From an uncultured Muribaculaceae bacterium (GTDB lineage: Bacteria; Bacteroidota; Bacteroidia; Bacteroidales; Muribaculaceae), in NCBI GenBank assembly GCA_934590135.1, contig CAKTOT010000001.1:25477-89476 (forward strand): a stretch of DNA of 64,000 nucleotides. Direction: 5' to 3'. The position numbers were made by a program, and so were the translations under genes. The notes beneath the pieces were generated by a model. It was given only the letters and a program-made list of their open reading frames with translations, was not told the origin of the DNA and ran no database searches. The first letter of the stretch is position 1. Every line of letters starts with the position of its first letter. Shown here piece by piece: positions 11,318-57,162 of this stretch.

Positions 11318-11730
11318 CGCTTTTTTTCGCGAAATAATCCCTCGCAGCACACGAAGCTGAAATTTGTCCAACGCATACACCAATATACAATTGCCACGGT
11401 CAGGTCATACGCCATCGCGCTTACGCTGCGGCGCAACCCGGAGTTAATCATTATTGGCAACTCGGCCAAAGAGTGTGGGGCTCTACCCTAATACGATGAT
11501 TTCCATTCCTTAGCTTCGCTATCTTGGCTTGTGCCCTACGGAAAGTCGACATCGGCGGTCGCTGAAATCATTAAGCGTAAAGGCGACGCTAAGCAATTGC
11601 TTACGATGTAGATACGAGACGTAAAAACAGAGGGACAAAAACATATTATATGCGGCGTAATTAAAAAAATAAAGCGTTAAAATTGCGGACAGATTTAAAG
11701 TCCAACTTTAAAATTGTCCAAATTGCGTGT

Positions 11731-13015: not shown

Positions 13016-13101
13016 GTCCGATCCCCGGGTGTGCAGGACAATAAACGAGGTTCCGTGCCGTTAGTATATAGAGGCATACAGCCTTGCACACCACATATAT
13101 T

Positions 13102-14621: not shown

Positions 14622-14672
14622 ACATAAGATATCACCCCCGTCACAAATCGTGGCAGGGGTGATATCTTATGT
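14622..14672 (-). terminator. Perfect 17-bp hairpin between convergent genes
   Basis: ACATAAGATATCACCCC (14622-14638) pairs with GGGGTGATATCTTATGT (14656-14672), with a 17-nt loop. It lies 37 nt past the stop of the minus-strand gene ending at 14709. Confidence 0.65.
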
Positions 14673-14708: not shown

Positions 14709-16112
14709 TTAGCGGACGAGGGTCTTGGATGTACGTGCGCCTTGGCGGCGGATGTATACTCCGGCGGGAAGTGAAGCGATGCCGTCTTCGGCTGCTACAC
14801 GTATGCCTTGAAGATTATAGTACTCGATGGCGGCCGAGGCGTCGTCAACAGTGATATCGCTTACGGACAGCGGATAGGGGTCGTCCTCGGTGAATATCGG
14901 CAGCGAGGGGAACCAGTAATTAGCAATCATCGGATAATCCTTGATTGTATTGCCATCGGCATCGCAGCGACGCGTGATGTACGTTGTCTTTTGGTTGCCC
15001 TGATACAGTGACATATATATTTCGTCGGTGACGGGATGCACGCGCAACGAACAGCCGTAGATACTCCATCCGGCGCCTTCTTCCTTGAAGTCGCGGATAA
15101 CTTCGGCTTTTCGGGTGACGGTATTAAAGCGATACAGGTACACTCCGTTGAACCATGCGGCTTGGCCTTTGCCGGCGTTGGCACGCCAGTAGAGGTAGTC
15201 CTGCCGGGTACTTGCGCAGAAGGCATCGGGCGTCCATGCGTACCACGAGTTGTTGGGCGGCAGAACATCATCATCGAGCGTTATGACTTCGTATTCGAGA
15301 GATTTGGGATCGAGGCGCATCAATTTGTTCAGCGGGTTGCCTGTTCCGCGGATATTCTTGTCTGTCGAAATCCACAGGATGCCGGCTCGGTCCTTGACAA
15401 TCGAGCCTATGCCTGCGCCGTCTTGGACCACATCCAATGATATTGTTTTGATGACCTTGTCCGTGGTCGGGTCGATGATTAGGAGTCCCGATTGCTGATG
15501 GGCGGCAAATACGAGGCCGTCGGCCAACAGCATAGTTCCGCACTGGCCTTTGTAGAGCGTCCCCGAGGGGTCAGTCGTTGCTCCGTCGGTGCCGTTGGGA
15601 TTCTCCGTGCCGGGGATTTGGCCGGTGACCGTCAGACTTCGAGTATCGAAAACCCAAATGCCGTTGGAAGAGGAGATGTACACTTTTTCGAGCGATACGC
15701 CGCATACTCCGCGCCCATCGCAACGTTTGCCGGAGGGGTCAATTTCGGTGAGCTGGGCGAGACATTCCATAGTCTTGGCGTCGCACACGGTGATGCGTGC
15801 GCCGGTGACGGATGCTCCGGGGTCTTTTTCCTGCTTGGCTATGATGTACAGACGTCCGCCCCAGGCGATGCCGTGCTGGGCGGTGCATCCGAGTTCCTTG
15901 CCCGAGTTACGGCTTTGGAATACGCGATAGTCCCAGTATACTCCGTTCGGGTCATCGGGGCGCAAGTAATTGATGGTAGAATTTTGGTGTCCGTACCAGT
16001 CTTCGTTGAGGATAAAGAAGCCGCCGCCCAAGTCCTCGGCAGCCACTGCCGCCGATGTTGCGGCGACAGTGGCTGTAAGGATGGCTGCAGACAGTAAATG
16101 TCTGATGATCAT
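14709..16112 (-). CDS. T9SS-exported YncE/BtuG-like beta-propeller protein (paralog 2)
   Basis: The ATG at 16112 gives MIIRHLLSAAILTATVAATSAAVA (type I signal). Propeller start GGFFILNEDWYGHQNSTINYL. C-terminal T9SS type-A-like tail IEYYNLQGIRVAAEDGIASLPAGVYIRRQGARTSKTLVR. About 70% aa identity by eye to the 20591-22000 protein in the N-terminal half. Confidence 0.8.
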   Translation of the reverse strand: MIIRHLLSAAILTATVAATSAAVAAEDLGGGFFILNEDWYGHQNSTINYLRPDDPNGVYWDYRVFQSRNSGKELGCTAQHGIAWGGRLYIIAKQEKDPGASVTGARITVCDAKTMECLAQLTEIDPSGKRCDGRGVCGVSLEKVYISSSNGIWVFDTRSLTVTGQIPGTENPNGTDGATTDPSGTLYKGQCGTMLLADGLVFAAHQQSGLLIIDPTTDKVIKTISLDVVQDGAGIGSIVKDRAGILWISTDKNIRGTGNPLNKLMRLDPKSLEYEVITLDDDVLPPNNSWYAWTPDAFCASTRQDYLYWRANAGKGQAAWFNGVYLYRFNTVTRKAEVIRDFKEEGAGWSIYGCSLRVHPVTDEIYMSLYQGNQKTTYITRRCDADGNTIKDYPMIANYWFPSLPIFTEDDPYPLSVSDITVDDASAAIEYYNLQGIRVAAEDGIASLPAGVYIRRQGARTSKTLVR

Positions 16113-16134
16113 TCGGGTTTGGGGGTTAGGTGTA

Positions 16135-19100
16135 TTACTTGATGATGACTTTGGCGGTCTTATTGCCTTGACGACGTACGTATATGCCGGGGGTGAGATT
16201 GTCGGCATCGACGCGTACGCCTTGCAGGTTGAAGTACTCGATGGCCGCGTCGTTGGCATCAACGGCAACGTCGTCTACGCCCACCTTGGCAATCTTGACG
16301 GCTATGTCGTGGTATGCCACGTGGCCGCGCGATACCGAACGTAGACGCAGCGTGGCATCACCGAAAGTCTTGGGGGTGATGGTCAGCTGTTTGCCTTCGA
16401 TGGCGACATCGGCGATATCTTCGAGCTGAGTATCATTGGCTGCAACGACAGACAGAGCAATCTCTGAATCGACGTCATCGGCATCGGTGAATCGACCGGT
16501 GAGGTCTACAATCTTGGGTTCGTCGTAGTTGTCAAGGTCAACTTTCTCGAGATCGGTGATTACCTCGGCGCGGTCGGGGTTGACCGGCATAGCGGGGAAC
16601 CAGTAGTACGGAGTCAGAGCGAAGTTCTTAAGTTCCTTGCCGGTGGTGCCGTCTACGAAGTAGTACCAATTGTAGCGATAGTTGGAGGAAGAACCGTGGG
16701 TGGTGGCCAGCATCAGACGGTCGTTGACATCGTCATAGCCGATAGTGCCATACTGAGCCTGCGTGGAGCCGTTCATACCTTCGCGTTTGCCCAGAGAGAA
16801 GAGCGGCTCTGATGGTACGTCGCCTTCCATATCCCAGGCGTAGATGTTGCCCGAGCCGGACCACGAGCCACCGTCCATCCAGTAGAGAACGTTCTTTTTC
16901 TTGGCAGCCAGGAAGTTGGTGTGACGCCACGAGCCCCACTGACAAGCTACGCTCTGGTTGATAGCGACTTCCTTGGCGATTTCGGCTGTCTCGGGGTTGA
17001 TGCAGTAGAGCTTCTTGGTAGCCATCATCCATACGTTGCCGTCGGCGGCGAGGACTACGCCTTGAGCGGCGGACTCTTCGATGGTCTTGACATAGGTGTC
17101 GGTGGCGGTGTCGATGACGTGTAGGCCTTTGCCTTGCTGTACGGCAAAAGCATACTTGCCGGCGGCGATGATGTCGCCCATCTGGTTGGAATAGGCACTA
17201 CCGCCGCCGATGCCGGCGATGTCGGCTGCATCAAGGACGTATGTATCACCCTGAGCGCGGCATACGCGTACTCCCGAGGCATGTGTCAGGTAGAATTTGT
17301 CGGGGCCTACACCGCAGGCAGCGCGGCCGTCACCGCCGATTTCGTCAAAGGCGGCAATTTTCTTGAGTGTCTTGGCGTCAGCTATGACCACGCGTCCGCC
17401 GCCGGCTTCGGTGCCGCGGAGGTCGCCGCCGTCACGTGCTTGCTTGGACATTACGACGAGGCGGTCGGCGTATACTGTTGCAAATTGCGAGGTTGCGCCG
17501 AAGGCTTGGAAGGGGTTCTCGCGTTCGTAGACTTTGCCGGTGAAGGCGTAGTCATCGCCTACGAAGTTGATGGAGCCGCTGCAGTGGCCGAACCATTCTT
17601 CGTTGAGCCAGAACATACCCTTGGTGTAGTCGATAGGCGTTTCGCGTTCGCGGTCTTCGACTACGAGCTTGAAGGTGAGCTGTGTGCCGCTGCCGTCGGC
17701 TGCGGTGTAAGTGACGTTGGTTTCGCCGAGCTTGAAGGTGGTCAGCTCGTAGAAGTTGCGCGTGGGATTGAAGGCCTTGGCGGCATAGATGGTGCACAAC
17801 GAGGGGTCTTCGATGGAGATGGTGAAGTCCGTGAGGTCGGCATCGGAGGGTTCGATGACGGGGTTGGCGGCAATCATTGAGTTGTAAGGCACGCGCAGTA
17901 CGCCATCGACTACGCCGTCGAGGGTGATGGATGTCACGGGCTTAACCGGAGCTACTTTGGCTACAAGTATGCCGCGTACGGCGGGATTCTCGGAGCTTTC
18001 GACGTAGATGTATGCATCGCCTTTGACTCCGGAAGTGACTTTGCCGTTGTTCTTATTGTAGCTCAGGACGTTGCTGACGCCGGCAGTGTATGTGAGGTTG
18101 CTGGCGGAGGTGTCCTCGTCGTTGATTGTGGAGGTCAGCGCGTAGGACTTTTTCAGGCCGATGGCATATACGCCGATGGCATCCGGGGTAAGGTCGGCGA
18201 TAGAGAGCTCGATGCCCGAAGGATTGGCGAGTGAGGCGAACTCTTTCCATCCGTCGGCAGTCAGATAAGCTTCGCGGCCTGCGGCGGGTACTGTCACCAG
18301 AGCCGTTGTCTTAACGGCGGCATTGAAGTTGCCGGCAGCGGGGATGACGGGAGTGGCTATGGTGATGTATTTCAGCGCTTCGGCCTTGGACAGGTCGGGC
18401 GTTGAAGTGACGCTGCCGCAGAGGAATAGATCTTCCAGAGCACTCTTTACGGAGAATATTTTGCCGGTATGGTCTGCATCGGTCTTGTCGCTTATCAGTT
18501 GGCGGCCCAACGAAAGCTTGGTCAGCGGGCAGGTTGTCGATGACAAATCCTCTGGGCAGGATAGGAACATGTCCGTGTAGCTGTCGTAATGGGTTGTGAT
18601 CCGCAGCGGCTCGGCGGCGGGCTTGATGGTAAGCTCGGTCAGTGCGCCACAGTTGTTGAAGGCATTGTAGGATATTTTTTTCAGCGATGAAGGCAGGATG
18701 ACCGATGTCATTGTCTTATTGGTGTTCCAATTGCCGTTCATGGCGCCGAGTGCCATGTCTCCGATTTCTTCAACACCTTCGGGGATTTCCACGGTGGTGA
18801 ACTTAGCGCCGCGGAATGCCCAGTCGCCGATAGTTTTCAGTTTATTGCCGGAGAAGCTGACTTTTGCAAGCGTTTTGCAGTCCTCAAAAGCACTCTCGCC
18901 GATCGCGACGACAGAAGATGGGATGGATATGCTCGGAAGCACACGGCAGTCCTGAAATGTGCCGTTGAGTTCGGTTACGACGCATTTCCAATTAAAATTC
19001 ACCTTGGTAAGGCTAAGACATGACTGGAAGATAGGCCCGGCGACCTTAAGGCCGGTGGGGAAGGCGATGCTTGTCACGCCGGTACACGAGTTGAAGGCGT

Positions 19101-19464
19101 AGTCGCCGATTTCGGTGACGGATGCCGGGAACGAAAGATAGGTCAACCCCGTGCAGTTGAAGAAGGCGTTTTTGCCGATTTTGGTGATGCCTTCCGCTAT
19201 TTCGAGGTCGGTAATATCATAGTTGTAAGCAAAAGCATCATCATCAATGGCGATTACTTTGTATTCTTTGCCGTTGTAGGTGATGGAGGCCGGAATGATG
19301 ATGTCGCCCGAAGGGGCTGTCTCGCCTGTCAGCGGGGCGCGTACCGTAGCGGTGCCGGCGCTGTTGGTCGAGTAGTACAGACCGTCCACCTTGATGTCGC
19401 GAGCGTTGGCTGTCAGCGCAAGGAAGCAGCCTAATGCACCTATAATCAATGATTTGTAGTTCAT
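16135..19464 (-). CDS. T9SS-exported chimeric protein: BspA-type leucine-rich repeats, Ig-like (Big_2-like) domains, YncE/BtuG-like beta-propeller, Ig-like domain, CTD
   Basis: The ATG at 19464 gives MNYKSLIIGALGCFLALTANA. LRR units include ITKIGKNAFFNCTGLTYLSFPASVTEIGDYAFNSCTGVTSIAFP. The propeller is encoded at about 16575-17625 (MFWLNEEWFGHCSGSINF ... YYWFPAMPVNPD). CTD: IEYFNLQGVRVDADNLTPGIYVRRQGNKTAKVIIK. Confidence 0.85.
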   Translation of the reverse strand: MNYKSLIIGALGCFLALTANARDIKVDGLYYSTNSAGTATVRAPLTGETAPSGDIIIPASITYNGKEYKVIAIDDDAFAYNYDITDLEIAEGITKIGKNAFFNCTGLTYLSFPASVTEIGDYAFNSCTGVTSIAFPTGLKVAGPIFQSCLSLTKVNFNWKCVVTELNGTFQDCRVLPSISIPSSVVAIGESAFEDCKTLAKVSFSGNKLKTIGDWAFRGAKFTTVEIPEGVEEIGDMALGAMNGNWNTNKTMTSVILPSSLKKISYNAFNNCGALTELTIKPAAEPLRITTHYDSYTDMFLSCPEDLSSTTCPLTKLSLGRQLISDKTDADHTGKIFSVKSALEDLFLCGSVTSTPDLSKAEALKYITIATPVIPAAGNFNAAVKTTALVTVPAAGREAYLTADGWKEFASLANPSGIELSIADLTPDAIGVYAIGLKKSYALTSTINDEDTSASNLTYTAGVSNVLSYNKNNGKVTSGVKGDAYIYVESSENPAVRGILVAKVAPVKPVTSITLDGVVDGVLRVPYNSMIAANPVIEPSDADLTDFTISIEDPSLCTIYAAKAFNPTRNFYELTTFKLGETNVTYTAADGSGTQLTFKLVVEDRERETPIDYTKGMFWLNEEWFGHCSGSINFVGDDYAFTGKVYERENPFQAFGATSQFATVYADRLVVMSKQARDGGDLRGTEAGGGRVVIADAKTLKKIAAFDEIGGDGRAACGVGPDKFYLTHASGVRVCRAQGDTYVLDAADIAGIGGGSAYSNQMGDIIAAGKYAFAVQQGKGLHVIDTATDTYVKTIEESAAQGVVLAADGNVWMMATKKLYCINPETAEIAKEVAINQSVACQWGSWRHTNFLAAKKKNVLYWMDGGSWSGSGNIYAWDMEGDVPSEPLFSLGKREGMNGSTQAQYGTIGYDDVNDRLMLATTHGSSSNYRYNWYYFVDGTTGKELKNFALTPYYWFPAMPVNPDRAEVITDLEKVDLDNYDEPKIVDLTGRFTDADDVDSEIALSVVAANDTQLEDIADVAIEGKQLTITPKTFGDATLRLRSVSRGHVAYHDIAVKIAKVGVDDVAVDANDAAIEYFNLQGVRVDADNLTPGIYVRRQGNKTAKVIIK

Positions 19465-19561
19465 AATAGGTTTGAATTTTGTTGATAGTTGGCCTGAGTG
19501 TGAATCGATATCACACCCAAAACCGGGGTCCATAATATGTTTTAATTATATTTTTGTGCTT

Positions 19562-20512
19562 TTACAGGCGCACCTTGTGGGCGCCGCCCGAAGATGTGCG
19601 CACGATGTATATTCCCGGAGGCAGGTTGCCGAGGCGGTCGGCATAACGGCCAAGGCATACGCCGGAGAGCGTGTACACGGTGGCAGATGTATCTTGTGCG
19701 GGTTTGATTACAGGATTTATTTCCTGTATGGAATTGACATTCAGGTGATCGTAATCTAATTCTATACTCCAATCGACTTCTGTCGATCCGTAATCATCGC
19801 CTTGGAAGTTGTGGTAGGCCCAGCCGTTGACGGCGCCGTCTGTCAGCTCGACGGAGGACATACCCAGACCGGAATAGCCCATTTCGTCAAGTATGGCATC
19901 GCCCACCCAATAGCTCCAGTATCCGTTGTACCATCCGGCACGCCACAATATATTTTTCGGCGCGCCTTCTTCCAACTGCCAGTGATCGTAGTCGTAGGCG
20001 CTGTATCCGTATTCGCGGTGGCTTAGGGGATGTTCGATGACGTGCGTTGTCTTGGCTTCCTCGATGGCCTGATTGCAGATCTCTTGTGTTGCGGCGCGGG
20101 GGGCTCCGGTCTGCCCCATACCTGTATTGGGCGTATAGTAGCCGAAGGAGATATTGGCGTCATTGGCGGCGCCTTCGAAGTCGTATCGCAGGTAGTTCGT
20201 TACCGCGTGGTCGAAACTGAATCCCGCGCCGGAGAATGTGTAGCCGAAGTTGGTCCACTGAATCATAACGTCGAAGTCGGTGGAGGCAGCGGCTATGGCT
20301 TTCACCATATCGGCGCCGGAGGGCTTAGAGATGGTACTGTCCCAGCGGAAACCCCAGACTTGAGCGACTTTTTGTTCGTCAAAAAGCACAACCAATGCGG
20401 CACGTGCATCGCCCTCGCCTGTCCAATGTGTAATTTTGTCGAAGTCCAGAGTGGTTGCACCGCAAGACAGTGCTATGGTGCATATTGCCGTAAGGAGTAG
20501 GTGTCTAACCAT
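19562..20512 (-). CDS. T9SS-exported hypothetical protein, Trp/Tyr-rich, no family recognised
   Basis: Signal MVRHLLLTAICTIALSCG. 12 Trp, including ILWRAGWYNGYWSYWVGD. C-terminal tail TVYTLSGVCLGRYADRLGNLPPGIYIVRTSSGGAHKVRL resembles a T9SS CTD. Confidence 0.7.
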   Translation of the reverse strand: MVRHLLLTAICTIALSCGATTLDFDKITHWTGEGDARAALVVLFDEQKVAQVWGFRWDSTISKPSGADMVKAIAAASTDFDVMIQWTNFGYTFSGAGFSFDHAVTNYLRYDFEGAANDANISFGYYTPNTGMGQTGAPRAATQEICNQAIEEAKTTHVIEHPLSHREYGYSAYDYDHWQLEEGAPKNILWRAGWYNGYWSYWVGDAILDEMGYSGLGMSSVELTDGAVNGWAYHNFQGDDYGSTEVDWSIELDYDHLNVNSIQEINPVIKPAQDTSATVYTLSGVCLGRYADRLGNLPPGIYIVRTSSGGAHKVRL

Positions 20513-20537
20513 ATAAGTCGGGCTTTGATAAAAAAAT

Positions 20538-20579
20538 ACGGGAAGACGGTCGGGATGTGTCCGTGGACCGTCTTCCCGT
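20538..20579 (-). terminator. Rho-independent terminator-like hairpin inside the B12 locus
   Basis: Perfect 14-bp stem: ACGGGAAGACGGTC (20538-20551) pairs with GACCGTCTTCCCGT (20566-20579). On the minus strand it is followed by ATTTTTTTATC. It lies 12 nt after the stop of 20591-22000. Confidence 0.7.
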
Positions 20580-20590
20580 GAATTGTCTGA

Positions 20591-22000
20591 TTAGCGCAGT
20601 AGTACTTTTTGAGTATTTGCGCCGCGGCGTTCGATGTATATGCCTGCGGGTGCGTTTTCGGGGTTGATACGACGGCCTTGCAGGTCGTAGTATTCGGGCT
20701 CGGCGTTGATGTCGGTGTCAGGAATGGTGATGTCGCCTATGCCGGTAGTGCTTTTGTCATCATTTTCGGTGAAGATGGGCAGCGAGGGGAACCAATAACT
20801 ATCAATCATAGCGTATTCTTTGAGGAGTTCGCCGGATGAGCTGTAGCGACGTGTCCAGTAGCTGTTGGAACCTGTGTCCTGATTGACGGCCATATAAATT
20901 TCGTCCGTCACGGGGTGGATGCGCATCGAGGAACCGTAGATATAACGGTCTTTGCTTGTGTATGTTCCGCCGGTTTCGATGATGGTTTCAGCCTCGTGTG
21001 TGACAGTGTTGAAGCGTACCACTTGGGTGGCCATATACCACATGAAGTATCCTGCATCGCCTTTCCAGTAGATGTAGTCGTTGTGCATGCTGGCGCACAT
21101 ACAGTCGGGTGTCCATGCGTACCAAGTGTTGGTGGGCTGGGGCACGGAGGTATCAAGCTCGATGAATTCGGCAGTCAGGGCTACCGGGTCGATGCGTACG
21201 ACATACGACATTGTCTCGCCGTAGCTGGACGATATACTGCCGTTGACGCCGGCCCAGATAACGCCGTTGCGATCCTTGATGAGCGAACCGACACCGATGT
21301 CTTCGCCCAGTTGCTTGAAGTCAATGGTCTTGACAATGAGGTCGGTGGCGGCGTCTACAACTTGCACGCCGTAGGTTTGATGTGCGATGAATACGTATTT
21401 GCCGCTCAAAACCATAGCTCCACATTGTCCGTGATACAGCGAGCCGGAGGGGTTGGTTGCGTCTTGGTCGCTATTGCCATTGGGGTTCTCGGTTCCGGCT
21501 ATTTGCTTGATTACGCTATTGGTGTGGGTGTCGAATACCCATACGCCGTTGGTCGAAGATATGTATATCTTGTCTGCCGAAACGCCCACGACACCACGGC
21601 CGTCACAGCGTGCGCCCGAGGGATCGATATTGGTCAGTTGGGCTATGCATTTCATTGAGTTGTAGTCGCATACGGTGATACGCGCGCCGGTGACGGATGC
21701 TCCGGGGTCTTTCTCTTGCTTGGAGATGAGGTAGAGGCGTCCACCCCAGGCGATACCGTCTTGTGCGGTACATCCGAGTTCCTTGCCCGGGTTACGGGTC
21801 TTGAAAACGCGGTATTCCCAGTAGTTGCCGTCCGGATCGTCCGGGCGCAAGTAGTTGATGGTGGAGTTGTTGTGTCCGTACCAGTCTTCGTTGAGGTAGA
21901 AGAAACCTCCCGAGAGGTCTTCTTCGGCCGAAGCGACAAGCGTACCGACCATAGCGATAGCTATGGCGGCCGTAAGTTTCTTGCTGTAAAATTTTTTCAT
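20591..22000 (-). CDS. T9SS-exported YncE/BtuG-like beta-propeller protein (paralog 1)
   Basis: Signal MKKFYSKKLTAAIAIAMVGTLVASA. GGFFYLNEDWYGHNNSTINYL ... SYWFPSLPIFTE. CTD: EYYDLQGRRINPENAPAGIYIERRGANTQKVLLR. Confidence 0.85.
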   Translation of the reverse strand: MKKFYSKKLTAAIAIAMVGTLVASAEEDLSGGFFYLNEDWYGHNNSTINYLRPDDPDGNYWEYRVFKTRNPGKELGCTAQDGIAWGGRLYLISKQEKDPGASVTGARITVCDYNSMKCIAQLTNIDPSGARCDGRGVVGVSADKIYISSTNGVWVFDTHTNSVIKQIAGTENPNGNSDQDATNPSGSLYHGQCGAMVLSGKYVFIAHQTYGVQVVDAATDLIVKTIDFKQLGEDIGVGSLIKDRNGVIWAGVNGSISSSYGETMSYVVRIDPVALTAEFIELDTSVPQPTNTWYAWTPDCMCASMHNDYIYWKGDAGYFMWYMATQVVRFNTVTHEAETIIETGGTYTSKDRYIYGSSMRIHPVTDEIYMAVNQDTGSNSYWTRRYSSSGELLKEYAMIDSYWFPSLPIFTENDDKSTTGIGDITIPDTDINAEPEYYDLQGRRINPENAPAGIYIERRGANTQKVLLR

Positions 22001-22069
22001 TTTTACTTGATAAATATGATTGTATGATATATTGATTACGAATATGCTTGCAATTTCGGCCTGTGTGTA

Positions 22070-23305
22070 TCATCGCCGTCTCGCCGCGGTGGGCACCATG
22101 GTGGCGATGACGTGGAGGTCGGCGGCACGACTTAGCTCGGTGGAAGTCTCGCCTATCCATCCGCAGTACTGATTGACGGCGGTGTATACGCGTATCCAGT
22201 CGGCGCCGGGTAGCTTGACGGGACGGCCGTCGGCATCTACGGCGTTGGAGATGTCGAAGCTATTGAGCTCGGGATAGTCGTTGGGATGGTTGTCCACGTA
22301 TCCCCAGTCATAGCTGTACAATATATAATATGTTCCGGCGCCGCTGCGGTCGATGGCGTTGGGCGCCAGGCAACTGCCTTGGAATGTCAGCGTCTGCTGC
22401 GGCATCCATTTGGGCCAGTATTCTCCATCGTGGAATATGTTGTGAGCGACGTATCCCGTTGCGCCGGTATTGTCCTTCCACGGAATGTAATACAGATTGT
22501 CAAGTGCGCCATTTTTTACCACCTCGGCCGTCGGGTCGGGGCGACTGTATGTAATTGTGTAGTTGTGGCGTGTCTTGGGCGAATAGTATTCGCTGCCGGC
22601 CAGCTCGTACCACGGGTCATCGGCTATGCCGTTGCAATTGGCGTCGTAGCTCACCATCACTATGCCTGGCTCGGCGCTGCCGCCGCGGTCTTCGGGATGT
22701 GTGGCTTCGTAGAAGCAGTTGCCCCAAATACGGAAGTCGTTGCCGGGGAGATTGACCACGGTATGGTCAAAGGCGAAGGTGACATATCCGCCGTAGGCCC
22801 CGAGCGAAATCATTACGTCGTTGGTGCCGCTGATGCACTCGCCGGCTTTACGCGCCATGTCCTCGGCGGTATCGCCTTCGTCGTAGCGCGGCATATCATT
22901 GACAAATTGTCCGGGGGCGGGGCAGTACTCGGTTACGGTGGATATGTAGGGGCTGTACTCAACTTCCTCGTGAAGCACGTCCACGGTCATCGTATGGCTC
23001 ACCGGTACGGAAGTGTCCACGATGTCGAAGCGCAAGGTGTAGCGCCCTTCTTCGGCGGTGAGGAATACCAAACGGCGTTGTCCTTCGATAATGCTGTCGG
23101 TGCCGTCGGGACGTGTGATGGTCCAGCGGTAGTCTTGGCCGGTGAGTGCCGGGTCAAGGTCCAGCTTGGTCATACGTGCCACGCGGTAGTAATCGTCCAG
23201 CCCGAGGCTGACAATGGGTGTATCGCCGCCGTTACAGCCGATGATTGTCAGGGCAATCGTGGCCGATATCAAGTATATTATGCCTTTGTGTAGTGTCTGC
23301 ATCAT
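22070..23305 (-). CDS. Surface lipoprotein with a PKD/Ig-like N-terminal domain and a beta-rich C-terminal domain. It occupies the position of the accessory cell-surface proteins of Bacteroides B12 loci.
   Basis: The ATG at 23305 (MMQTLHKGIIYLISATIALTIIGC, lipobox) overlaps the upstream stop by 4 nt (ATGA). Ig-like segment YRWTITRPDGTDSIIEGQRRLVFLTAEEGRYTLRFDIVD. The 146 N-terminal codons in the track ORF are Arg/His-rich junk overlapping the upstream gene. Confidence 0.7.
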   Translation of the reverse strand: MMQTLHKGIIYLISATIALTIIGCNGGDTPIVSLGLDDYYRVARMTKLDLDPALTGQDYRWTITRPDGTDSIIEGQRRLVFLTAEEGRYTLRFDIVDTSVPVSHTMTVDVLHEEVEYSPYISTVTEYCPAPGQFVNDMPRYDEGDTAEDMARKAGECISGTNDVMISLGAYGGYVTFAFDHTVVNLPGNDFRIWGNCFYEATHPEDRGGSAEPGIVMVSYDANCNGIADDPWYELAGSEYYSPKTRHNYTITYSRPDPTAEVVKNGALDNLYYIPWKDNTGATGYVAHNIFHDGEYWPKWMPQQTLTFQGSCLAPNAIDRSGAGTYYILYSYDWGYVDNHPNDYPELNSFDISNAVDADGRPVKLPGADWIRVYTAVNQYCGWIGETSTELSRAADLHVIATMVPTAARRR

Positions 23306-24480
23306 CGTTTTTCGTAAAAACATATATGAGCCGGGATGTCGCCGGTACGGACGCTCCATTGGCGTTTGCCGTCGGGACTGAAGCAGTAGAGCGTGCCCGA
23401 GGATACGTAATTCTTGGCATCGGTGACGTAGATGTCGCCCGTGACGGGGTGTACGGTGATGCCGTAGGGCATCTTGATGTTTTGCTCGGTGCCATCGGTG
23501 ATGAAGTTGTCGGCTACACGCTGGCGGTCGCGCACGTTGACGATGCCGTATGATATGGTATTGGTGCCGGTAAAGTTGCTCCACGCTACGCCGATATAAT
23601 ACATACTGTCGTCTCGTATTGCCATATCGCTCACGGCAATGTCCAGACATCCGGCCACGCGCATCTCGCCGGTGCCCTCGTCGCGCTCCAGGTAATACAG
23701 GCGTGGCGGCACGCTGTTGTAGTCGCCGCGCGAGGTCACCCATAGACGGTTGTATTTGTCCTTGCGTATGCGGTGCAGGTTGATGGCCACGGGTATCTGA
23801 CGCACTTGTTTGAAGTCTATCAATTGGATTACGGATACGGTGTTGTCATAATTGGGCACTCGGTATCCGCCGCTATTGGCGACGTACATATAGTCGTCGA
23901 TAATCTCCATTTCCTCGGGCTGGTATCCGACGATGCAACGCCTTGTTACCTTGAGGCTGGTGGTGTCCACCTCGTAGACTGCGCCTTTGGGCGAATCGGG
24001 GTCGATGAGCACCGGGCCGACGTAGCTGCTGACGTATGCCTTGCCGCGATGGAACTTGATGTATCGACAGTTGGGTATATCTATTTGGGCGATGCGTACG
24101 GCTGTCTTTGCGTCCAGGACCTCGACTTTATGGCTGCAATTGACTACGAGGTAGAGCTTGCTGCCGTAGATGGCTATGTCGTTGCCGACATCTCCGAGTT
24201 CTTTGATGACATTGGGGTTGCGCTCGGGGTATATATTGCGCGCATACAGTCCGGTGACGTAGTCCAGGTAGTCGAGAGTGCATTTATTGCTGCCCATATT
24301 GCCTTCGTTGAGCAGGTACATACCGCGTATGCGGCCTTCGCTGTCAGGCACTGCCGGCACGGGGTCATACTCTGCCGGCACCACGAGCTCGTCCTCGCGA
24401 CAGCTCGTGGTACATAGCATGAGTAGCAGAAAACAAATCATACATCCCGTTAGTCGGAATGACGTATGGGGATGAATCAT
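23302..24480 (-). CDS. YncE/DUF5074-type beta-propeller lipoprotein, BtuG-like by context
   Basis: The ATG at 24480 gives MIHPHTSFRLTGCMICFLLLMLCTTSC (lipobox). GMYLLNEGNMGSNKCTLDYLDYVTGLY is the LNEGNxGxxNxxL start typical of this propeller family. It lies immediately downstream of the riboswitch-controlled TonB-dependent receptor. Confidence 0.75.
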   Translation of the reverse strand: MIHPHTSFRLTGCMICFLLLMLCTTSCREDELVVPAEYDPVPAVPDSEGRIRGMYLLNEGNMGSNKCTLDYLDYVTGLYARNIYPERNPNVIKELGDVGNDIAIYGSKLYLVVNCSHKVEVLDAKTAVRIAQIDIPNCRYIKFHRGKAYVSSYVGPVLIDPDSPKGAVYEVDTTSLKVTRRCIVGYQPEEMEIIDDYMYVANSGGYRVPNYDNTVSVIQLIDFKQVRQIPVAINLHRIRKDKYNRLWVTSRGDYNSVPPRLYYLERDEGTGEMRVAGCLDIAVSDMAIRDDSMYYIGVAWSNFTGTNTISYGIVNVRDRQRVADNFITDGTEQNIKMPYGITVHPVTGDIYVTDAKNYVSSGTLYCFSPDGKRQWSVRTGDIPAHICFYEKR

Positions 24481-24572
24481 AGGTCTATATATTATTGTAT
24501 TGATATAACCGCGGTCGCGTGTCGCCTCTGCGGCACGTGCCATCATCGTCTTTGAGTCCGTATTCCTGCTTG

Positions 24573-26702
24573 TCATATCGTTACGGTGAGGGTGAAACGG
24601 TAGTTGCGCTTGGGCATGGGGTAGTTGATGATGACGTCGTAGTCCTGGGAAAACAAGTTGTTGACTTCGACGGTGGCGCGTAGGCCGACTTTGCCGAGGG
24701 TGAAATCTCGGGTCAGCGATACATCGCTGGTGTACCAGGGCTGGGTGTAGTTGTAGCGGATATTTTCCTGCTGGTTGTAACGCTCGCCTACGTATATGAA
24801 GCTGTAGTTGAGGTTCCAGCGTCGCCACGCGATATTGGCTATGGCGCCTCCGCTGTGGTGTGGAATGTACGGAATTTGGTCGCGATAGTAGTTGTCCTCG
24901 GGATTGGTGATGTCGATGGCGCGTTGCCAGGTGTACTGCAGGCGCAGGGTGATGTCCATGTCGCGGCGCGGGGTGACGGTGGCGGCGGCGCTGATGTCGA
25001 CGCCGCGGATGTCCACGAGGCCCAGGTTAAGCATAGTCCAACGGAATTGCTGCCCCTTGGGGTAGGCTACAATCTTGTCGCGGACTTTGTTGTAATATCC
25101 GTCGGCGCTGAATTTGATGGAGGATAGCAACGAGGTGCGACGCGTATGGTCGTACACGATGCCGACGTTGTACTGGGTGACGCGCTCGGGATTGAGCTTG
25201 GAATTGCCCATATCGGCGTAATACAAGTCGTTGAAAGTCGGCATACGGAACGAACGCTTGTAGAACGCACGCAGCGACAACATATCCGTGCCGCGCTCGT
25301 TCTTGGTGTCTACAAAGGCGTAGGATGCGTACACGGCCGGAGTGAATACGTGCTTGGTGGGAGGATCCTGAACATCTTCGAGCATATCGCGCACAAAGGT
25401 GCCCAAAGCCGAGGCCTGTCCTTTGAAGCGGCCGAGGGTGACGGCTGTAGCGGCGGACAGCAGATTGGAATAGCGCACGGGGCGTACAAAGTCGTAGACG
25501 TCGGCGTCGAGGCTGTTGTACATAAAATCGTAGCTGGCCGACACTTCCCATTTGCCGGGGATGATGTCGTATTGATTGGCCGTGGATACGTAGACCTCGC
25601 GCTGACGATATAGATTGTCCACCTTGATTTGCTTGTCGTCGTTGTTGACGTAGTGCGTACGGTAGAAGGCGTACTTGGCATTAGCCAGGGTGGTCCAGCG
25701 CCCGTAAGTGGCACGCCAATGACCTTGGACAAAGCTGTTTGTATCCCAGATTCGCTCGCCGCGACGCCACACATTATTGACGATTGCGCCGGGAATGCCG
25801 CGTTCGCTGTTGTAGTTGTAGGCCTTGGCCATCCAATTGCCGTGTGCCGTGGACCCGAATACCGAAGCCTCGAGGCGCGTGGCGTTGATGTCGCCGTTTT
25901 GGCGCGTGGCCGTGGTGTCATAGGCCACTTCGCCGGCGGGGTTGACGCGGCGATAGCGGAATTTGTATTTGCCGGACGAATTGAGCCATTCGGCACTGAG
26001 CGAGGCGCTTACGCGGCGCGACAGTTTGAGCTGTACCAATGCCGAGGGGTTGATGAGATCAAAGCTGCCGGTGCGTACTGCCGCACGAGCATGGTATGTC
26101 TCGTCGCCCTCAAATCGAGGTACGGCGGTACGCATATATATTGTGCCGGCGTTGCCGAAGTCGCGTGCCGGCTGCAATATCTGACTTTTCTGGCCGTTGT
26201 ACAGCGACAACGCCTCCATGTTGTCCAGTGAGAATTGTCCGAGGTCAATCTGGCCGTTTTGGGCGTTACCCAGAGCCACTCCATCGTACACTACGCCGGT
26301 GTGATTGGTGCCCATCGAGCGGATATTGACAGTCTTGATGCCTCCGACGCCGCCGTAATCCTTGACCTGTACACCCGAGAAGTAGCGCAACGCATCGGCC
26401 ACGCTGTTGCTGGACAGACGGCGCAGCTCCTCGCCGGCAAGTGTCTGTACGGGAATGATTTCGGTGGGTTCCCACGGGCGTCGTGTGGTTACTATCAACT
26501 CATGCAGCGATTGGATGCTGTCGCTCCATCTCATTGCGCGGGCTTCGATGGCGGCGCTGTCGCGCTCGGCTTCGGTGGTCGAAGTGCTTTCGGGGTGCTG
26601 CGCATACACGGCGGTGGCGGCTGCAAGTGCGAGGACGGCCGCCACGCATACTTGACGGTATACGCGGAGTTCTTTCAAAAATGTCTTAGATGTTTGTGGC
26701 AT
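24573..26702 (-). CDS. btuB: TonB-dependent receptor, BtuB-like (corrinoid) by riboswitch context
   Basis: The ATG at 26702 gives MPQTSKTFLKELRVYRQVCVAAVLALAAATAVYAQ (signal). Plug region VADALRYFSGVQVKDYGGVGGIKTVNIRSMGTNHTGVVYDGVALGN. C-terminal beta-barrel ending NYRFTLTVTI. The track ORF start at 27140 runs through the riboswitch and is rejected. Confidence 0.9.
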   Translation of the reverse strand: MPQTSKTFLKELRVYRQVCVAAVLALAAATAVYAQHPESTSTTEAERDSAAIEARAMRWSDSIQSLHELIVTTRRPWEPTEIIPVQTLAGEELRRLSSNSVADALRYFSGVQVKDYGGVGGIKTVNIRSMGTNHTGVVYDGVALGNAQNGQIDLGQFSLDNMEALSLYNGQKSQILQPARDFGNAGTIYMRTAVPRFEGDETYHARAAVRTGSFDLINPSALVQLKLSRRVSASLSAEWLNSSGKYKFRYRRVNPAGEVAYDTTATRQNGDINATRLEASVFGSTAHGNWMAKAYNYNSERGIPGAIVNNVWRRGERIWDTNSFVQGHWRATYGRWTTLANAKYAFYRTHYVNNDDKQIKVDNLYRQREVYVSTANQYDIIPGKWEVSASYDFMYNSLDADVYDFVRPVRYSNLLSAATAVTLGRFKGQASALGTFVRDMLEDVQDPPTKHVFTPAVYASYAFVDTKNERGTDMLSLRAFYKRSFRMPTFNDLYYADMGNSKLNPERVTQYNVGIVYDHTRRTSLLSSIKFSADGYYNKVRDKIVAYPKGQQFRWTMLNLGLVDIRGVDISAAATVTPRRDMDITLRLQYTWQRAIDITNPEDNYYRDQIPYIPHHSGGAIANIAWRRWNLNYSFIYVGERYNQQENIRYNYTQPWYTSDVSLTRDFTLGKVGLRATVEVNNLFSQDYDVIINYPMPKRNYRFTLTVTI

Positions 26703-26869
26703 CTGTCGAATGTGTTGTGCTCCTTCCGCCATGGCGGACAAGGGCGCGAGTGAAACATATCGCAGATGCTGTTGCCGCATCCTCCGGAACGGACGGCGCG
26801 CAATGCGCCGATATTCCCGGCAGGAATTTCGGGTCTGATGAGACTCTGAGCTCGTCCTCGCAAGCCGGC

Positions 26870-27095
26870 GTCGCTGTGACGCCCTTGGCAGAGCATCGGC
26901 GGTTTTGCTTTCAGGCAGGTCTTCTGACTTGCCTCCGACCGGCTTCGGACGCCTTCCCGTATCGCCTGCGGCGGTATAGTGACGTATGTCCGAGGTCGTG
27001 CCAATGTGCTGATGCGCAGCGGCGTGAGGCTCACAGCAGCGGGACTGTCCGGGATTTGCACCCGATTCCCTTTTAAGCGCGGCACAGCGGCCGCG
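26870..27095 (-). promoter_or_regulatory. Cobalamin (B12) riboswitch
   Basis: The minus strand reads AAAAGGGAAUCGGGUGCAAAUCCCGGACAGUCCCGCUGCUGUGAG (core, complement of about 27030-27074), then GGGAAGGCG, then the B12 box AAGUCAGAAGACCUGCC (complement of 26914-26930). All match the canonical cobalamin aptamer consensus. The boundaries are approximate. Confidence 0.85.
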
Positions 27096-27110
27096 CACCT
27101 GTTTGCGCCG

Positions 27111-27118
27111 CAAAGTTA
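27111..27118 (-). promoter_or_regulatory. Candidate -7 box (TAACTTTG) driving the riboswitch leader
   Basis: Exact TAnnTTTG match on the minus strand, immediately upstream of the aptamer. Confidence 0.5.
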
Positions 27119-27373
27119 CGACTTCCCCTCCAATTATCAAAGAAAAAATTCCGTAATCCGCTTCTTTCCCCGTTTTGAGCCGGTGAAAATCGGGACGGAT
27201 CTAAATTTCGGGTAGTTTAAGAAGCAATATATCTTCAAATTAAGTTGATTTTACTTCTTCGGATTAAGCTATCTCGAAATTAAGTACTAAATTCGCATCA
27301 GTCATTATTCGAAAGGCGCGAGCCATCTTGCCTTAGACAACACATAAGTATACAAGAATAGCAATAATAAAAT

Positions 27374-33329: not shown

Positions 33330-33384
33330 GTCTGTATGTATGTCCGTTGATGGATGTGCGTGTTGTTCGGTGCGGGCGCGGCGA

Positions 33385-35490: not shown

Positions 35491-35557
35491 TTCTATGAGA
35501 TGTTTATCGTATGATTTGATTGTTTGTCTGTGATTTGTGTCGTGTGGTCGGGCGATG

Positions 35558-37436: not shown

Positions 37437-37448
37437 CGTTTCAGAGCA

Positions 37449-53685: not shown

Positions 53686-56600
53686 ATGTGTATAAATCTG
53701 ACAGTCAATAGCATATATAATAATATACGGATACTCGCCTTTGTGGCGCTGCTTATGTGTGCCGTAGGGTCGGCACACGCCTTGCCGGCGGAGACTTATG
53801 CCACCAAATCGGCGTTGGCCTCCGGAAAATGGGTCAAGGTCAGCGTTGATGCCACCGGCATCTACCGTCTGACGCCCGCGACGCTGCGTCGCTGGGGCTT
53901 TGACGACCCGTCCAAGGTCAGCGTCTATGGCTACGGTGCCTACCGCACCGGCAACCGTCTGAGTGCTGCCAACTTCTATGACGACCTTCCGGCCATACCC
54001 GTGCAACGGCTTGCCGACGGCACCATTGTGTTCTATGCCTACGGCCCGACATCGTGGGAACAAACCGCGTCACGCCGATATGTGGGCGTCCAAAACGTCT
54101 ACACCACAAAGGGTTACTACTATATTGGCGAGAATTCGGAAGCTCCGGCAAGTGGCGAGCCCAGGACGGTATCCTCCGAGGTCACGGGCGATATATCCGA
54201 GACATACAATGCCCGACTGCACCACGAAGTGGACGAAGTGAGCCCCGGCGAGGCCGGCGCTGCGCTTGTGGGCGAAGACTTCCGCTATACGCCCACGCGC
54301 TACTTCGATTTCAAGCTTACCGACCGCGACGATACGGACCAAAACGTATGGATGGAATGCTCCTTTGTCTCGAAGACATACTCGGCTTCGGCGTTGCTCA
54401 AATTTACCGTCAACGGCACCAAACTGCCCGAAATATACGCCGATGCCATAGGTACGACCAACAACTCCTCATACTACCACGGCGTAGAAGGCACGCCGCG
54501 TCACACCTTTACGCTCTCAAGCGATGATGCACGCATAGGTATCACCTACGAGCCGCAGGGCACTACCAGCGGCGCATGGCTCAACTATCTGACGCTCAAC
54601 TATACGCGAAAACTACGTTTGCCCTCCACCGGTGAGGGTACGCTGCTGTTTTGGCTGAGCAATTCGGCGGCACGTCTCAGCGGCGTCACCGATGCGTCGC
54701 GTCTTCATGTTTGGGATGTCAGCAATGTGCTGGAGCCTGTGGCCGTAGAATTTAAGGACGAAGGCTCGAGCGTACTGTGGAACAATCCCATGTATGGCTT
54801 CCGTGCCTACGCTGCATGGACAGAGGATGCCGCACTGCCCGAGCCGACACTCGTCGGCAACATCTCCAATCAGAATCTCCACGGCATTGAGGTCCCGGAT
54901 ATGGTGATAGTGGCGCCGGCGGCGTATACCGCACAGGCCGAGCGTATCGCCGAGTTGCATCGCAACGATCAGATATGTCCGATGACCGTATCGGTCATCG
55001 AAGACCAGGCGATCTATAACGAATTTTCGAGCGGCAGTGCCGATGTGCACGGCTTGCGCCGCTTTTTCAAGATGCTCTATGACCGCGGCGGCGGCCTCAC
55101 TCCCACCGCCGAGCATCACCTGCAGTATGTGCTGCTGATGGGGTGTGCCACCTACGACCACCGTCACCTCACCGCCGACCTCAAGCGTATGAATACAGTG
55201 ACACTACCGTCATGGGTGACCGCGACTATGCGCTCAAGCCTCAACGACAATGATGGCTTCACCTGCGATGACTTTGCAGCCATACTTGCCGATGACAGCG
55301 GCGAGAATATGGCTTACGACAAGATAAGCATATCTTTGGGCCGTCTGCCTGTACGTTCGCTTGACGAGGCTACTTCCACCGTGGACAAACTCTGCGAGTA
55401 TGTCAAGTCCTCCAAAAAGACCGATTGGCGCAATCAGGTGATGATTCTTGCCGATGACGAAGATCAAGGCATACACATGGAGCAAGCCGACAGCTTCGAG
55501 TATTACGTCAATAATTCCTCTCCGGGAGTATTCCTGAACAATAAGGTGTATATCGATGCCTTCGAAAAAGTCTCCGGCACCGTTCCGGGGGCACGCGAAG
55601 AGATGTTCCGCCTTTTGGATGCCGGTACGGCATATTGGATATACCTCGGACACGCCTCCAACCATGGTATGAGCCACGAGAAGATGCTCACCATGGAAGA
55701 CATTACCGGGTTGTACCTTAAGCGTATACCTATACTTATCGCCGGGACGTGCGACTGGTTGCGCTGGGATTCGAATACGCTGAGTGCCGGCGAGATTTTC
55801 TTCCACGAACGCTATGGCGGCACTATCGCCACCATCAGTGCCACACGACCCGTATATATCAGCGAGAATGGCCGATATATGGCCGCTTTGGGCCGCAACT
55901 TCGGCGTACGCGACGAGTATGGTCGTCTGCCCGCCATCGGCGACATCTACCGTAAGGCCAAAAACGACATACAAAGTTCGGCCGGCATCGCCAGCGACAA
56001 CCATCTGCGTTACGTCCTTATGGGCGACCCGGCTATGCGTGCCGTCACCCCCTCCAACCGCGTACGCCTCGAGAGCATAGACGGCAAGGCTTTGCCCGTC
56101 AATGTCAATGACGACAGTGCCGAGCAGATAGTCGTGTCCGCAATGCAGCGCGCCACCTTTGCCGGCAGTGTCACCGATGCTTCGGGCAACGTCCTGACAG
56201 ACTTCAACGGACGCGTCTTTATCACCATATACGATGCCGATTATTCGACGACATCTTCGGGTCGCGGCACCGGTAAGCCATACACCTTCGATATGCACGG
56301 CGGAAAGCTGTATACCGGTGTGACTATGGTCAAAGACGGACAATGGAGCCTCGAGGTGGCTATGCCCGGCGAAATTGCCGACAACTTCCGCGAGGCCACG
56401 GCCAATATGTATGCCTATGCGGATGCGGACGACCGCGACGCCTGCGGCGTCAGCCATACGTTCTACGTCTACGGTATGGACGAAAATGCTCCCGAAGACA
56501 CCCAGGCTCCGACTATCGAAGCAATGTACCTCAACCATGAGAGTTTTGAGGACGGTGCCGCCGTCAACGCCGACCCCATGCTCATAGCCAAAGTAAGCGA

Positions 56601-57162
56601 CAATGTAGGCATCAACGTCTCCACCGCCGGTATAGGTCACCAAATGACGCTCACCATGGGTCGCAAAATATACAATGATGTATCACAATACTATACGACC
56701 AATGACGACGGCAGCGCCGGTGGCACAATCTGCTATCCGTTGAGCGGCCTCGAAAAAGGCGAATACAGCCTGACACTCAAGGTGTGGGATACGGCGGGCA
56801 ATAGCGCCGACCGTACCGTCAACTTCAATGTCAATCCTTCGGCGACACCTCATATCTACGACATTTGGTCCGACTCGTCGCCGGCGTCGGTACAAGCCAA
56901 CTTCTACCTGCGCCATGACCGTCCCGACCAGATGCTCACCGTCACCGTCACCGTATACAATATGCTTGGACAGCCGCTGTGGAGCAATACCACCACGGGA
57001 CTGTCGGATATGTATACATCCACGCCCGTGGTGTGGAACCTGACCGACGAAGCCGGAAGGCGTGTACCGCGCGGCATCTACCTATATCGTGCCGTCATCA
57101 TCGGTGAAGACGGGCAGGAACAGGCCACGGCATCGCAACGCCTGGCGGTGACTGCACAATGA
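53686..57162 (+). CDS. porU: T9SS C-terminal signal peptidase/sortase PorU (peptidase C25 family), copy A
   Basis: 1158 aa. N-terminal SALASGKWVKVSVDATGIYRLTPATLRRWGF...VSVYGYG. C25 dyad context YLGHASNHG (His codon 55651-55653, residue 656) and IAGTCDW (Cys codon 55750-55752, residue 689). FSSGSADVHGLRRFFKMLYDRG. Confidence 0.8.
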   Translation: MCINLTVNSIYNNIRILAFVALLMCAVGSAHALPAETYATKSALASGKWVKVSVDATGIYRLTPATLRRWGFDDPSKVSVYGYGAYRTGNRLSAANFYDDLPAIPVQRLADGTIVFYAYGPTSWEQTASRRYVGVQNVYTTKGYYYIGENSEAPASGEPRTVSSEVTGDISETYNARLHHEVDEVSPGEAGAALVGEDFRYTPTRYFDFKLTDRDDTDQNVWMECSFVSKTYSASALLKFTVNGTKLPEIYADAIGTTNNSSYYHGVEGTPRHTFTLSSDDARIGITYEPQGTTSGAWLNYLTLNYTRKLRLPSTGEGTLLFWLSNSAARLSGVTDASRLHVWDVSNVLEPVAVEFKDEGSSVLWNNPMYGFRAYAAWTEDAALPEPTLVGNISNQNLHGIEVPDMVIVAPAAYTAQAERIAELHRNDQICPMTVSVIEDQAIYNEFSSGSADVHGLRRFFKMLYDRGGGLTPTAEHHLQYVLLMGCATYDHRHLTADLKRMNTVTLPSWVTATMRSSLNDNDGFTCDDFAAILADDSGENMAYDKISISLGRLPVRSLDEATSTVDKLCEYVKSSKKTDWRNQVMILADDEDQGIHMEQADSFEYYVNNSSPGVFLNNKVYIDAFEKVSGTVPGAREEMFRLLDAGTAYWIYLGHASNHGMSHEKMLTMEDITGLYLKRIPILIAGTCDWLRWDSNTLSAGEIFFHERYGGTIATISATRPVYISENGRYMAALGRNFGVRDEYGRLPAIGDIYRKAKNDIQSSAGIASDNHLRYVLMGDPAMRAVTPSNRVRLESIDGKALPVNVNDDSAEQIVVSAMQRATFAGSVTDASGNVLTDFNGRVFITIYDADYSTTSSGRGTGKPYTFDMHGGKLYTGVTMVKDGQWSLEVAMPGEIADNFREATANMYAYADADDRDACGVSHTFYVYGMDENAPEDTQAPTIEAMYLNHESFEDGAAVNADPMLIAKVSDNVGINVSTAGIGHQMTLTMGRKIYNDVSQYYTTNDDGSAGGTICYPLSGLEKGEYSLTLKVWDTAGNSADRTVNFNVNPSATPHIYDIWSDSSPASVQANFYLRHDRPDQMLTVTVTVYNMLGQPLWSNTTTGLSDMYTSTPVVWNLTDEAGRRVPRGIYLYRAVIIGEDGQEQATASQRLAVTAQ

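Follow-up and report, generated by a model that had tools for sequence, protein, structure and literature searches.

Within a 64,000 nt stretch of a Muribaculaceae contig (CAKTOT010000001.1, assembly GCA_934590135.1; hereafter the window), we find seven genes on one strand, named G1 to G7 in operon order, which to judge from their sequences form a lipoprotein vitamin B12 relay rebuilt as predicted cargo of the type IX secretion system (T9SS). We consider it probable that this locus is the Muribaculaceae counterpart of operon 1 of Bacteroides thetaiotaomicron, comprising a riboswitch-led gate of BtuB (G1), BtuG (G2) and BtuH (G3), together with a T9SS-delivered outer layer made up of BtuK-like propellers (G4, G7 and a domain of the leucine-rich repeat (LRR) protein G6) and of the protein G5. 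All components with the exception of G5 come from known families, and BtuK has already been tied to B12 operons. The open reading frames of all seven genes lie where a preliminary description of this DNA had placed them (Table 1). Competition for B12 shapes gut communities, and the Muribaculaceae are a dominant family of the mouse gut. To our knowledge, the multi-protein B12 capture relay has been worked out in Bacteroides alone, a genus in which we know of no T9SS, and which uses lipoproteins and vesicles instead.

The BtuB, BtuG and BtuH gate

The locus is headed by a cobalamin riboswitch, for which the RF00174 search proposed in the preliminary description returned a significant match over the full model (cmscan, E 3.8e-20; 87.2 bits, the gathering score being 31.5); this is the sole Rfam family in the window, and its leader runs for about 195 nt to the BtuB start codon. 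Just upstream, where a -7 box had been pointed out, we find TAACTTTG (27118-27111), preceded at a distance of 19 nt by TTTG (27141-27138), an arrangement that we take to be the Bacteroidetes promoter consensus.

G1, earlier described as a TonB-dependent receptor of roughly 709 residues, is indeed such a protein and can now be specified as BtuB1-like, given that its residues 63-707 match BtuB1 of B. thetaiotaomicron (PDB 8blw_A) at E 4.8e-125. It falls below the cut-offs of two BtuB equivalog models (TIGR01779, 91 against 599.7 bits; NF007926, 69 against 836 bits), both of which are presumably tuned to the E. coli-type (proteobacterial) BtuB. G2 matches the propeller part of 8blw_B (E 1.4e-36), 8ptf/8ptd (2e-36) and the BtuG2 entries 8bmy, 8bn0 and 8bmx (~1e-17), and scores 62 bits against Pfam DUF5074; its lipobox cysteine, read by eye, and the acidic residues that accompany it are conserved in orthologues. 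By homology and by its place beside btuB, we predict G2 to be a true BtuG-type lipoprotein. For G3, previously listed as a second surface lipoprotein, the lipobox and the ATGA overlap with G2 are confirmed, and the protein is now identified as BtuH-like from its matches to residues 393-660 of 8blw_B (the BtuH domain of BtuGH, E 5.7e-62) and to BtuH2 (7biz, E 3.9e-40). In the four relatives whose gene junctions were read in detail, BtuG and BtuH always possess a lipobox. The RF00174, BtuB1 and BtuG matches thus support the riboswitch-led BtuB/BtuG locus that had been proposed.

Tailed propellers of the BtuK branch

The three propellers that carry C-terminal tails match Pfam DUF5074 with E-values of 4e-109 (G4), 5.8e-123 (G6) and 1.2e-129 (G7), corresponding to 365-433 bits against a PF16819 gathering score of 27.2. 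In G6 the propeller is combined with an LRR_5 region (E 7.6e-42); G6 and G4 are 26% identical in their propellers and 38% identical in their tails. Searched against the PDB, a profile of the propeller family has a single match, 9S6C (E 8.8e-16; 'B12 Binding protein - BtuK1' in Foldseek), BtuG entries being left unmatched, and the single sequence of G4 also finds 9s6c (E 4.7e-10). This structure is of BtuK1 (BT1486) with bound cyanocobalamin (2026 review, PMC13616437). The AlphaFold2 model of G4 (pLDDT 85, pTM 0.81) has as its nine best Foldseek matches in the PDB exclusively BtuG2, BtuK1 and BtuG1 (E-values from 9e-19 to 6e-13; the eight single-domain entries among them have TMt 0.73-0.80), after which there is a 1e4-fold gap in E-value, generic propellers appearing only from 1e-9.

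The BtuG-type fold suggested in the preliminary description is therefore correct as regards fold and Pfam family, and the collinear alignment of the lipoprotein propeller G2 with tailed G4 can be reproduced (25% identity over ~240 residues, pairwise E 3e-7). The accompanying suggestion, that BtuG had been duplicated and converted, does not stand: by sequence, the profile matching 9S6C only, G4, the G6 domain and G7 are assigned to the BtuK branch. Neither the lipobox cysteine nor the PKD domain is found in G4 or G7, which possess a signal peptide and a C-terminal tail instead. A recent origin of the tailed propellers from the local BtuG was considered and ruled out, given the 25% identity and the far better fit to DUF5074 and BtuK1.

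BtuK1 contacts B12 through Glu23, Trp25, His28, Thr60, residue 62, Lys76, Glu77 and Asn102, and its binding loop spans residues 22-32 (PMC13616437). In a HMMER alignment the loop NEGWFGH aligns without gaps, and at the same length, with NEDWYGH of G4. Consequently, the conserved start motif of the tailed propellers (LNEDWYGH or LNEEWFGH), which had been singled out together with the end motif YWFP(S/A)(L/M)P and is present along with it, is the predicted B12-binding loop itself. Six of the seven BtuK1 contact residues that can be aligned are identical in the tailed propellers: E38, W40, H43, T78, Q80 and K94 of G4 correspond to Glu23, Trp25, His28, Thr60, residue 62 and Lys76, and do not vary among 68 aligned homologues. 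The BtuK1 contact residues are also kept in G7 and in the G6 propeller.

G4 is a recent, lineage-specific extra copy. The close relatives L005 and L006 are without it, BtuB being 95-97% identical among these close relatives. A search for contigs encoding G4 returned one 7-kb contig only. Together with the hairpin that follows it, G4 (20528-22069) constitutes a 1.5-kb presence/absence polymorphism with respect to L005 (~5716-5776) and L006.

Gene order and operon control

A scan of species-representative genomes yielded 413 loci, of which the best 80 were fetched and mapped by tblastn. These 80 mostly bear Muribaculaceae or older Bacteroidales names, with a few evidently mislabelled bins, and the homologues that have organism names derive chiefly from metagenome-assembled genomes of Muribaculaceae. 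Wherever the contig is long enough, the order among the fetched loci is BtuB, BtuG, BtuH, a G5-like gene, one or more LRR proteins, an LRR protein or G5 module fused to DUF5074, and DUF5074, an order that holds down to ~45-50% propeller identity, so that the synteny check put forward with the preliminary description finds gene order conserved. In each of the 80 loci the last gene of the cluster is the G7 orthologue. Across this sample synteny rules out chance adjacency of the cluster genes. The junctions read closely, those of four relatives, consist of overlaps or of gaps of no more than ~90 nt, and all distal proteins there carry tails. Rfam places a single cobalamin riboswitch ahead of BtuB in 7/7 loci, and an nhmmer profile finds it in 32/32 loci that include the 5' region; a second riboswitch was detected inside none of these clusters (7 by Rfam, 32 by nhmmer). 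In one relative, L053, a SAM-II (long-loop) riboswitch (58.4 bits against 44) lies directly downstream of the last DUF5074 gene, at 11548-11606 on the plus strand.

The hairpin previously noted after G4 is borne out by folding (-29.7 kcal/mol, z -7.5, with 0/200 shuffles as stable) and is followed by UAUUUUUUU; a terminator scan limited to loops of 3-8 nt made no call on it, its apical part being larger. The stem is retained in L002 and L004 without a T-run, which is present only in this window, and the hairpin is absent where G4 is absent (L005, L006). We read no internal promoter of the TAnnTTTG type in the intergenic stretches of the window, including that between the hairpin and G5. Given that the hairpin occurs only where G4 is present and that the relatives are compact, the hairpin may attenuate G5 to G7 in this strain, but across the family the arrangement appears to be that of one compact operon. 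A strong hairpin after G7 likely marks the operon end.

C-terminal tails and the T9SS

The last 35-50 residues of G4, G5, G6 and G7 share the pattern EYYNLQG.RV....L.PGIYIRR.G....KV..K, which is fitted by the tails of 111/120 homologues; a lipobox pattern, even a loose one, is fitted by only 7 homologues. When tails are aligned, they grade continuously into full-length C-terminal domains (CTDs) of T9SS cargo, the short ones being without an internal segment, and 8/68 orthologues match TIGR04183 at E <= 0.01. Moreover, fusion relatives that combine G5 modules with DUF5074 exceed the PF18962 cut-off of 27 bits (P0187, 32.9; P0219, 45.5). A profile of 44 tails finds in the PDB 8glk_D (7.9e-5), 5hfs (0.0067), 7pq4 (0.01), 8glj_D, 5ag8/9 and 5y1a, matches that comprise Flavobacterium johnsoniae cargo CTDs (8glk_D/8glj_D), RgpB CTDs (5hfs, 7pq4, 5ag8/9) and HBP35; in all, 7 of the 9 best matches are T9SS CTDs or cargo, and an eighth is 4kca. 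The latter, a rumen-metagenome endo-arabinanase, carries the same short type of tail at residues 641-677 of chain A (ending ...ERIYDLSGRLVTTPLQKGIYIRN), which indicates that the short variant also occurs beyond this locus and this family.

Two further proteins of the window are of interest in this regard. A 1172-aa protein (40409-43927, minus strand), with weak matches to an RGI_lyase beta-sheet and DUF4082, ends in a tail nearly identical to that of G6 (...AEYFNLQGIRVDADNLTPGIYVRR...), which suggests that one gene recently acquired a copy of the tail module from another. An endonuclease I of 803 aa (27957-30368, plus strand), secreted and containing an Ig-like domain, is divergent from the B12 operon and possesses a longer CTD, which at 19.9 bits is still under the TIGR04183 cut-off of 23; in the relative L005 this gene lies on the opposite side of the cluster.

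The preliminary description had supposed a T9SS export context, and the machinery is indeed represented, by two genes for the sortase PorU that it had overlooked, both above the NF033707 cut-off. Their presence in the window implies that the organism has T9SS machinery. The two, one canonical and one divergent, lie 1.4 kb apart with Rex (57235-57885) between them, and it might be speculated that the second serves the unusually short CTD variant.

G5, a candidate new family

G5 had been seen only as one more CTD gene, and its conservation as a family had gone unnoticed. The protein has no sequence match in Pfam, NCBIfam or the PDB, and a profile search of the PDB gave nothing beyond weak CTD matches and chance matches to S16. 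A G5-like match is nevertheless found by tblastn in 72/80 of the fetched loci, and many Trp and Tyr residues of its core are invariant. The AlphaFold2 model (pLDDT 86.5) retrieves nothing significant with Foldseek; weak matches recur to the transcobalamin beta domain (5no0, 5np4, 7qbe, 8ixt) and to DUF4430 (3u7z) at E 1-5, with TMt of 0.59-0.68 for the single-domain entries 5no0, 5np4 and 3u7z. As a lead from modelling, the N-terminal module of G5 may thus be related to these domains, and a corrinoid-binding role for G5 is likewise put forward as a lead.

A G5 profile searched against 1.84 billion representative proteins gives 1174 matches. The N-terminal module, of ~85 aa, recurs in giant proteins, with up to 7 copies in the proteins checked, and among 69 divergent members 21 contain Por_Secre_tail, 15 DUF5074, 14 LRR_5 and 4 DUF4430. 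Examples of such fusions are P0163, P0187 and P0219, and Big_2 is also among the co-occurring domains (proteins P0156-P0302). On these sequence relationships G5 appears to found an undescribed protein family within the domain network of the propellers.

Proposed mechanism and alternatives

Under the relay that we propose, low intracellular cobamide would lead the riboswitch to permit transcription and translation from the TTTG/TAACTTTG promoter. G1 would enter the outer membrane, the lipoprotein G2 would cap it, and the lipoprotein G3 would take its place on the surface, as in Bacteroides. G4, the protein containing the G6 domain, G7 and G5, each with a Sec signal peptide and a short type-A-like tail, would cross the outer membrane via the T9SS, where PorU would remove the tail, followed by either fixation of the propellers and G5 at the surface or their release. 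The face bearing the conserved loop NE(D/E)W(Y/F)GH would then bind corrinoids, which would be passed to BtuH, BtuG and BtuB. We put forward only tentatively, as a possibility short of probable, the fuller set of proposals in which the T9SS delivers a capture layer, propellers are sometimes built into giant LRR/Ig proteins, G5 is a B12-binding family and the short CTD, for which the second PorU may be responsible, is a mark of cargo.

Several observations weigh against the proposed relay, and these bear on three alternatives. Firstly, the propellers may be exported and yet not bind corrinoids, acting as BtuK2-like scaffolds or partners, or binding another tetrapyrrole or ligand. In B. thetaiotaomicron, BtuK2 fails to bind B12 although it resembles BtuK1, and even there BtuK has yet to be assigned a role (PMC13616437), so that family membership is no guarantee of B12 binding. 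Furthermore, identity with BtuK1 amounts to only ~17-18% in structural alignment, Glu77 of BtuK1 is replaced here by an invariant Gln, and Asn102 could not be placed in the alignment. However, the lack of binding by BtuK2 has been ascribed to a truncated loop, whereas the loop here has the full BtuK1 length; the E, W and H of its motif do not vary across the 68 sequences, and linkage to the riboswitch is conserved. We regard this alternative as unlikely.

A still less probable explanation is that BtuB, BtuG and BtuH, perhaps with G4, are the whole of the B12 system, and that G5, the LRR protein and G7 are separately expressed T9SS adhesins of the BspA type. The strong, terminator-like hairpin after G4 is the chief point in its favour, as G5 to G7 may in this strain escape riboswitch control; LRR_5/BspA domains are moreover typical adhesin modules, and the uncertain function of BtuK in B. 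thetaiotaomicron is compatible with such a view. Yet the order of BtuH, G5, LRR and DUF5074 genes is kept wherever contigs allow, neighbouring genes in the four relatives overlapping or lying close together, the hairpin is found only where G4 is inserted and is without its T-run in L002 and L004, and no TAnnTTTG element separates it from G5. The B12-contact residues of BtuK1 retained by G7 and the G6 propeller also argue for a role of the distal genes in the proposed relay.

The third alternative holds that the tails are not T9SS signals, that the proteins are periplasmic or take another route, and that likeness to CTDs reflects convergent beta-hairpin sequence. The TIGR04183 check that had been suggested goes against a straightforward T9SS C-terminal domain: whether whole proteins or 94-aa tails are searched, TIGR04183 and PF18962 reach their curated cut-offs on none of the four tails, the best score being that of G5 (16.1 bits against 23), with no match for G4, G6 or G7. 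At ~35-50 aa the tails are about half the canonical CTD length, and AlphaFold2 models of G4 and G5 show only 3-4 strands there. Solved CTDs are matched by the tail profile specifically but only weakly (E 5e-5 to 0.04), NCBI names the homologues merely 'DUF5074 domain-containing protein', and PorU was the only T9SS core component found within the 64-kb window, the only part of the genome covered. Because the tails are short and sub-threshold, their assignment as CTDs is partly supported, through indirect evidence. That evidence, namely the gradation into full CTDs with 8/68 orthologues recognised by TIGR04183, the predominance of T9SS entries (7/9, an eighth, 4kca, having the same short tail) among the best PDB matches of the tail profile, the modular occurrence of the tail on unrelated proteins and the presence of PorU twice, speaks against a non-T9SS route, the least probable of the three.

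Other features of the window

Three Mfa-like fimbrillin genes (32343-35706, minus strand) are followed by four genes within 35558-40178 on the same strand (35558-36475, 36549-37436, 37449-38483 and 39024-40178), which have no NCBIfam match; the region 32343-40178 is probably a type V pilus operon. Convergent with G7 is a gene for a 488-aa protein (13084-14550, plus strand) with a beta-helix region and a C-terminal 'choice-of-anchor Q' match of 25.1 bits against a cut-off of 25.

Table 1 Position and character of the features of the B12 locus, its control elements and the PorU genes, numbered from the first nucleotide of the window
Feature	Position	Strand	Characteristics
Bacteroidetes-type promoter	27111..27141	-	TTTG (-33), 19-nt spacer, TAACTTTG (-7); consensus match read from sequence
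Cobalamin riboswitch aptamer RF00174	26897..27117	-	cmscan, full model 1-189
G1, TonB-dependent transporter, BtuB1 type	24573..26702	-	709 aa; Plug and TonB_dep_Rec barrel (Pfam)
G2, BtuG-like seven-bladed propeller lipoprotein	23302..24480	-	lipobox ...TTSC, then REDE; 92 nt after btuB
G3, BtuH-like B12-binding-domain lipoprotein	22070..23305	-	lipobox ...IIGC; start overlaps G2 stop (ATGA)
G4, BtuK-like DUF5074 propeller	20591..22000	-	type I signal peptide; CTD-like tail ~residues 420-469, nt 20591-20743
Intrinsic-terminator-like hairpin after G4	20528..20579	-	14-bp stem 20538-20579 and U-run 20528-20537
G5	19562..20512	-	316 aa; signal peptide, Trp/Tyr-rich core of ~240 aa, CTD-like tail
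G6, BspA-type LRR protein	16135..19464	-	1109 aa; LRR_5, DUF5074, Ig-like spacer, CTD-like tail nt 16135-16287
G6, BtuK-like propeller domain	16579..17622	-	residues 615-962; DUF5074
G7, BtuK-like DUF5074 propeller, conserved terminal gene	14709..16112	-	type I signal peptide; CTD-like tail nt 14709-14870
Strong hairpin after G7	14623..14672	-	-45.3 kcal/mol, z -7.5
PorU, T9SS sortase / C-terminal signal peptidase	53686..57162	+	NF033707 846 bits against 420; Peptidase_C25
Second, divergent PorU paralogue	58568..62053	+	NF033707 473.5 bits against 420; Peptidase_C25

Novelty and significance

In line with the preliminary description, which knew of no described T9SS-dependent B12 system, we found no account of T9SS-linked B12 capture in the searchable literature. 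One paper containing both BtuG and T9SS terms treats a different topic, to judge by its title, and another that came up for the T9SS and B12 proved unrelated. To judge by titles and abstracts, the only two papers found to mention DUF5074 deal with other subjects, and for the T9SS in Muribaculaceae our searches found only a preprint predicting a CTD cargo. The T9SS goes unmentioned in a 2026 review of the B12 relay (PMC13616437). If the proposed relay is correct, it would mean that the capture relay is modular as to export route, and the T9SS would gain a nutrient-vitamin role, as a vitamin-acquisition secretion system, beyond its association with proteases, glycanases and gliding. In addition, the unexplained BtuK proteins would acquire a second, independent genetic context, and both a candidate corrinoid-binding family (G5) and a short CTD variant would become testable in cultured Muribaculum or Duncaniella.

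Comparison with known systems

The tails resemble the type A CTDs of the T9SS (for example RgpB and HBP35 of Porphyromonas gingivalis and the F. johnsoniae cargo in the SprA-PorV complexes 8GLJ/8GLK) in possessing (Y/F)xLxG..V followed by GIY(I/V)....K near the end, in being modular on unrelated secreted proteins, and in that PorU is encoded nearby. They differ in length, at ~35-50 against 70-80 aa, because the internal hairpin is missing. With BtuG (BT1954 and others), the lid of BtuB, the tailed propellers share the DUF5074 family and the fold, the top Foldseek match of G4 being 8bmx_D (E 9e-19), whereas over ~240 residues the identity of G4, G6 and G7 to the local BtuG reaches only ~25%. 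BtuK1 (9S6C) is similar in its seven-bladed fold (TMt 0.79-0.80), in the loop NE.W.GH and in the contacts T, Q and K, but differs through the low identity (~17-18%), the PKD domain missing here, the substitution of Glu77 by Gln, and the lipid anchor, which is here replaced by a predicted T9SS tail.

The closest known system is operon 1 of B. thetaiotaomicron, btuK1-btuK2-btuH1-btuB1-btuGH-btuJ1 (BT1486-BT1491; PMC12751083, PMC13616437), in which BtuK1 and BtuK2 are PKD-propeller lipoproteins (PMC12751083). Both loci combine a cobalamin riboswitch with a BtuB1-type transporter, a BtuG propeller, a BtuH domain and at least two BtuK/DUF5074 propellers. However, in the Muribaculaceae locus the transporter gene comes first, BtuG and BtuH are separate proteins in place of the BtuGH fusion, and BtuJ (DUF4465) is not present. 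Its BtuK homologues, without PKD domain and lipobox, combine a type I signal peptide with a CTD-like tail, and they are accompanied by partners additional to those of operon 1, namely the G5 family and a BspA-type LRR protein.

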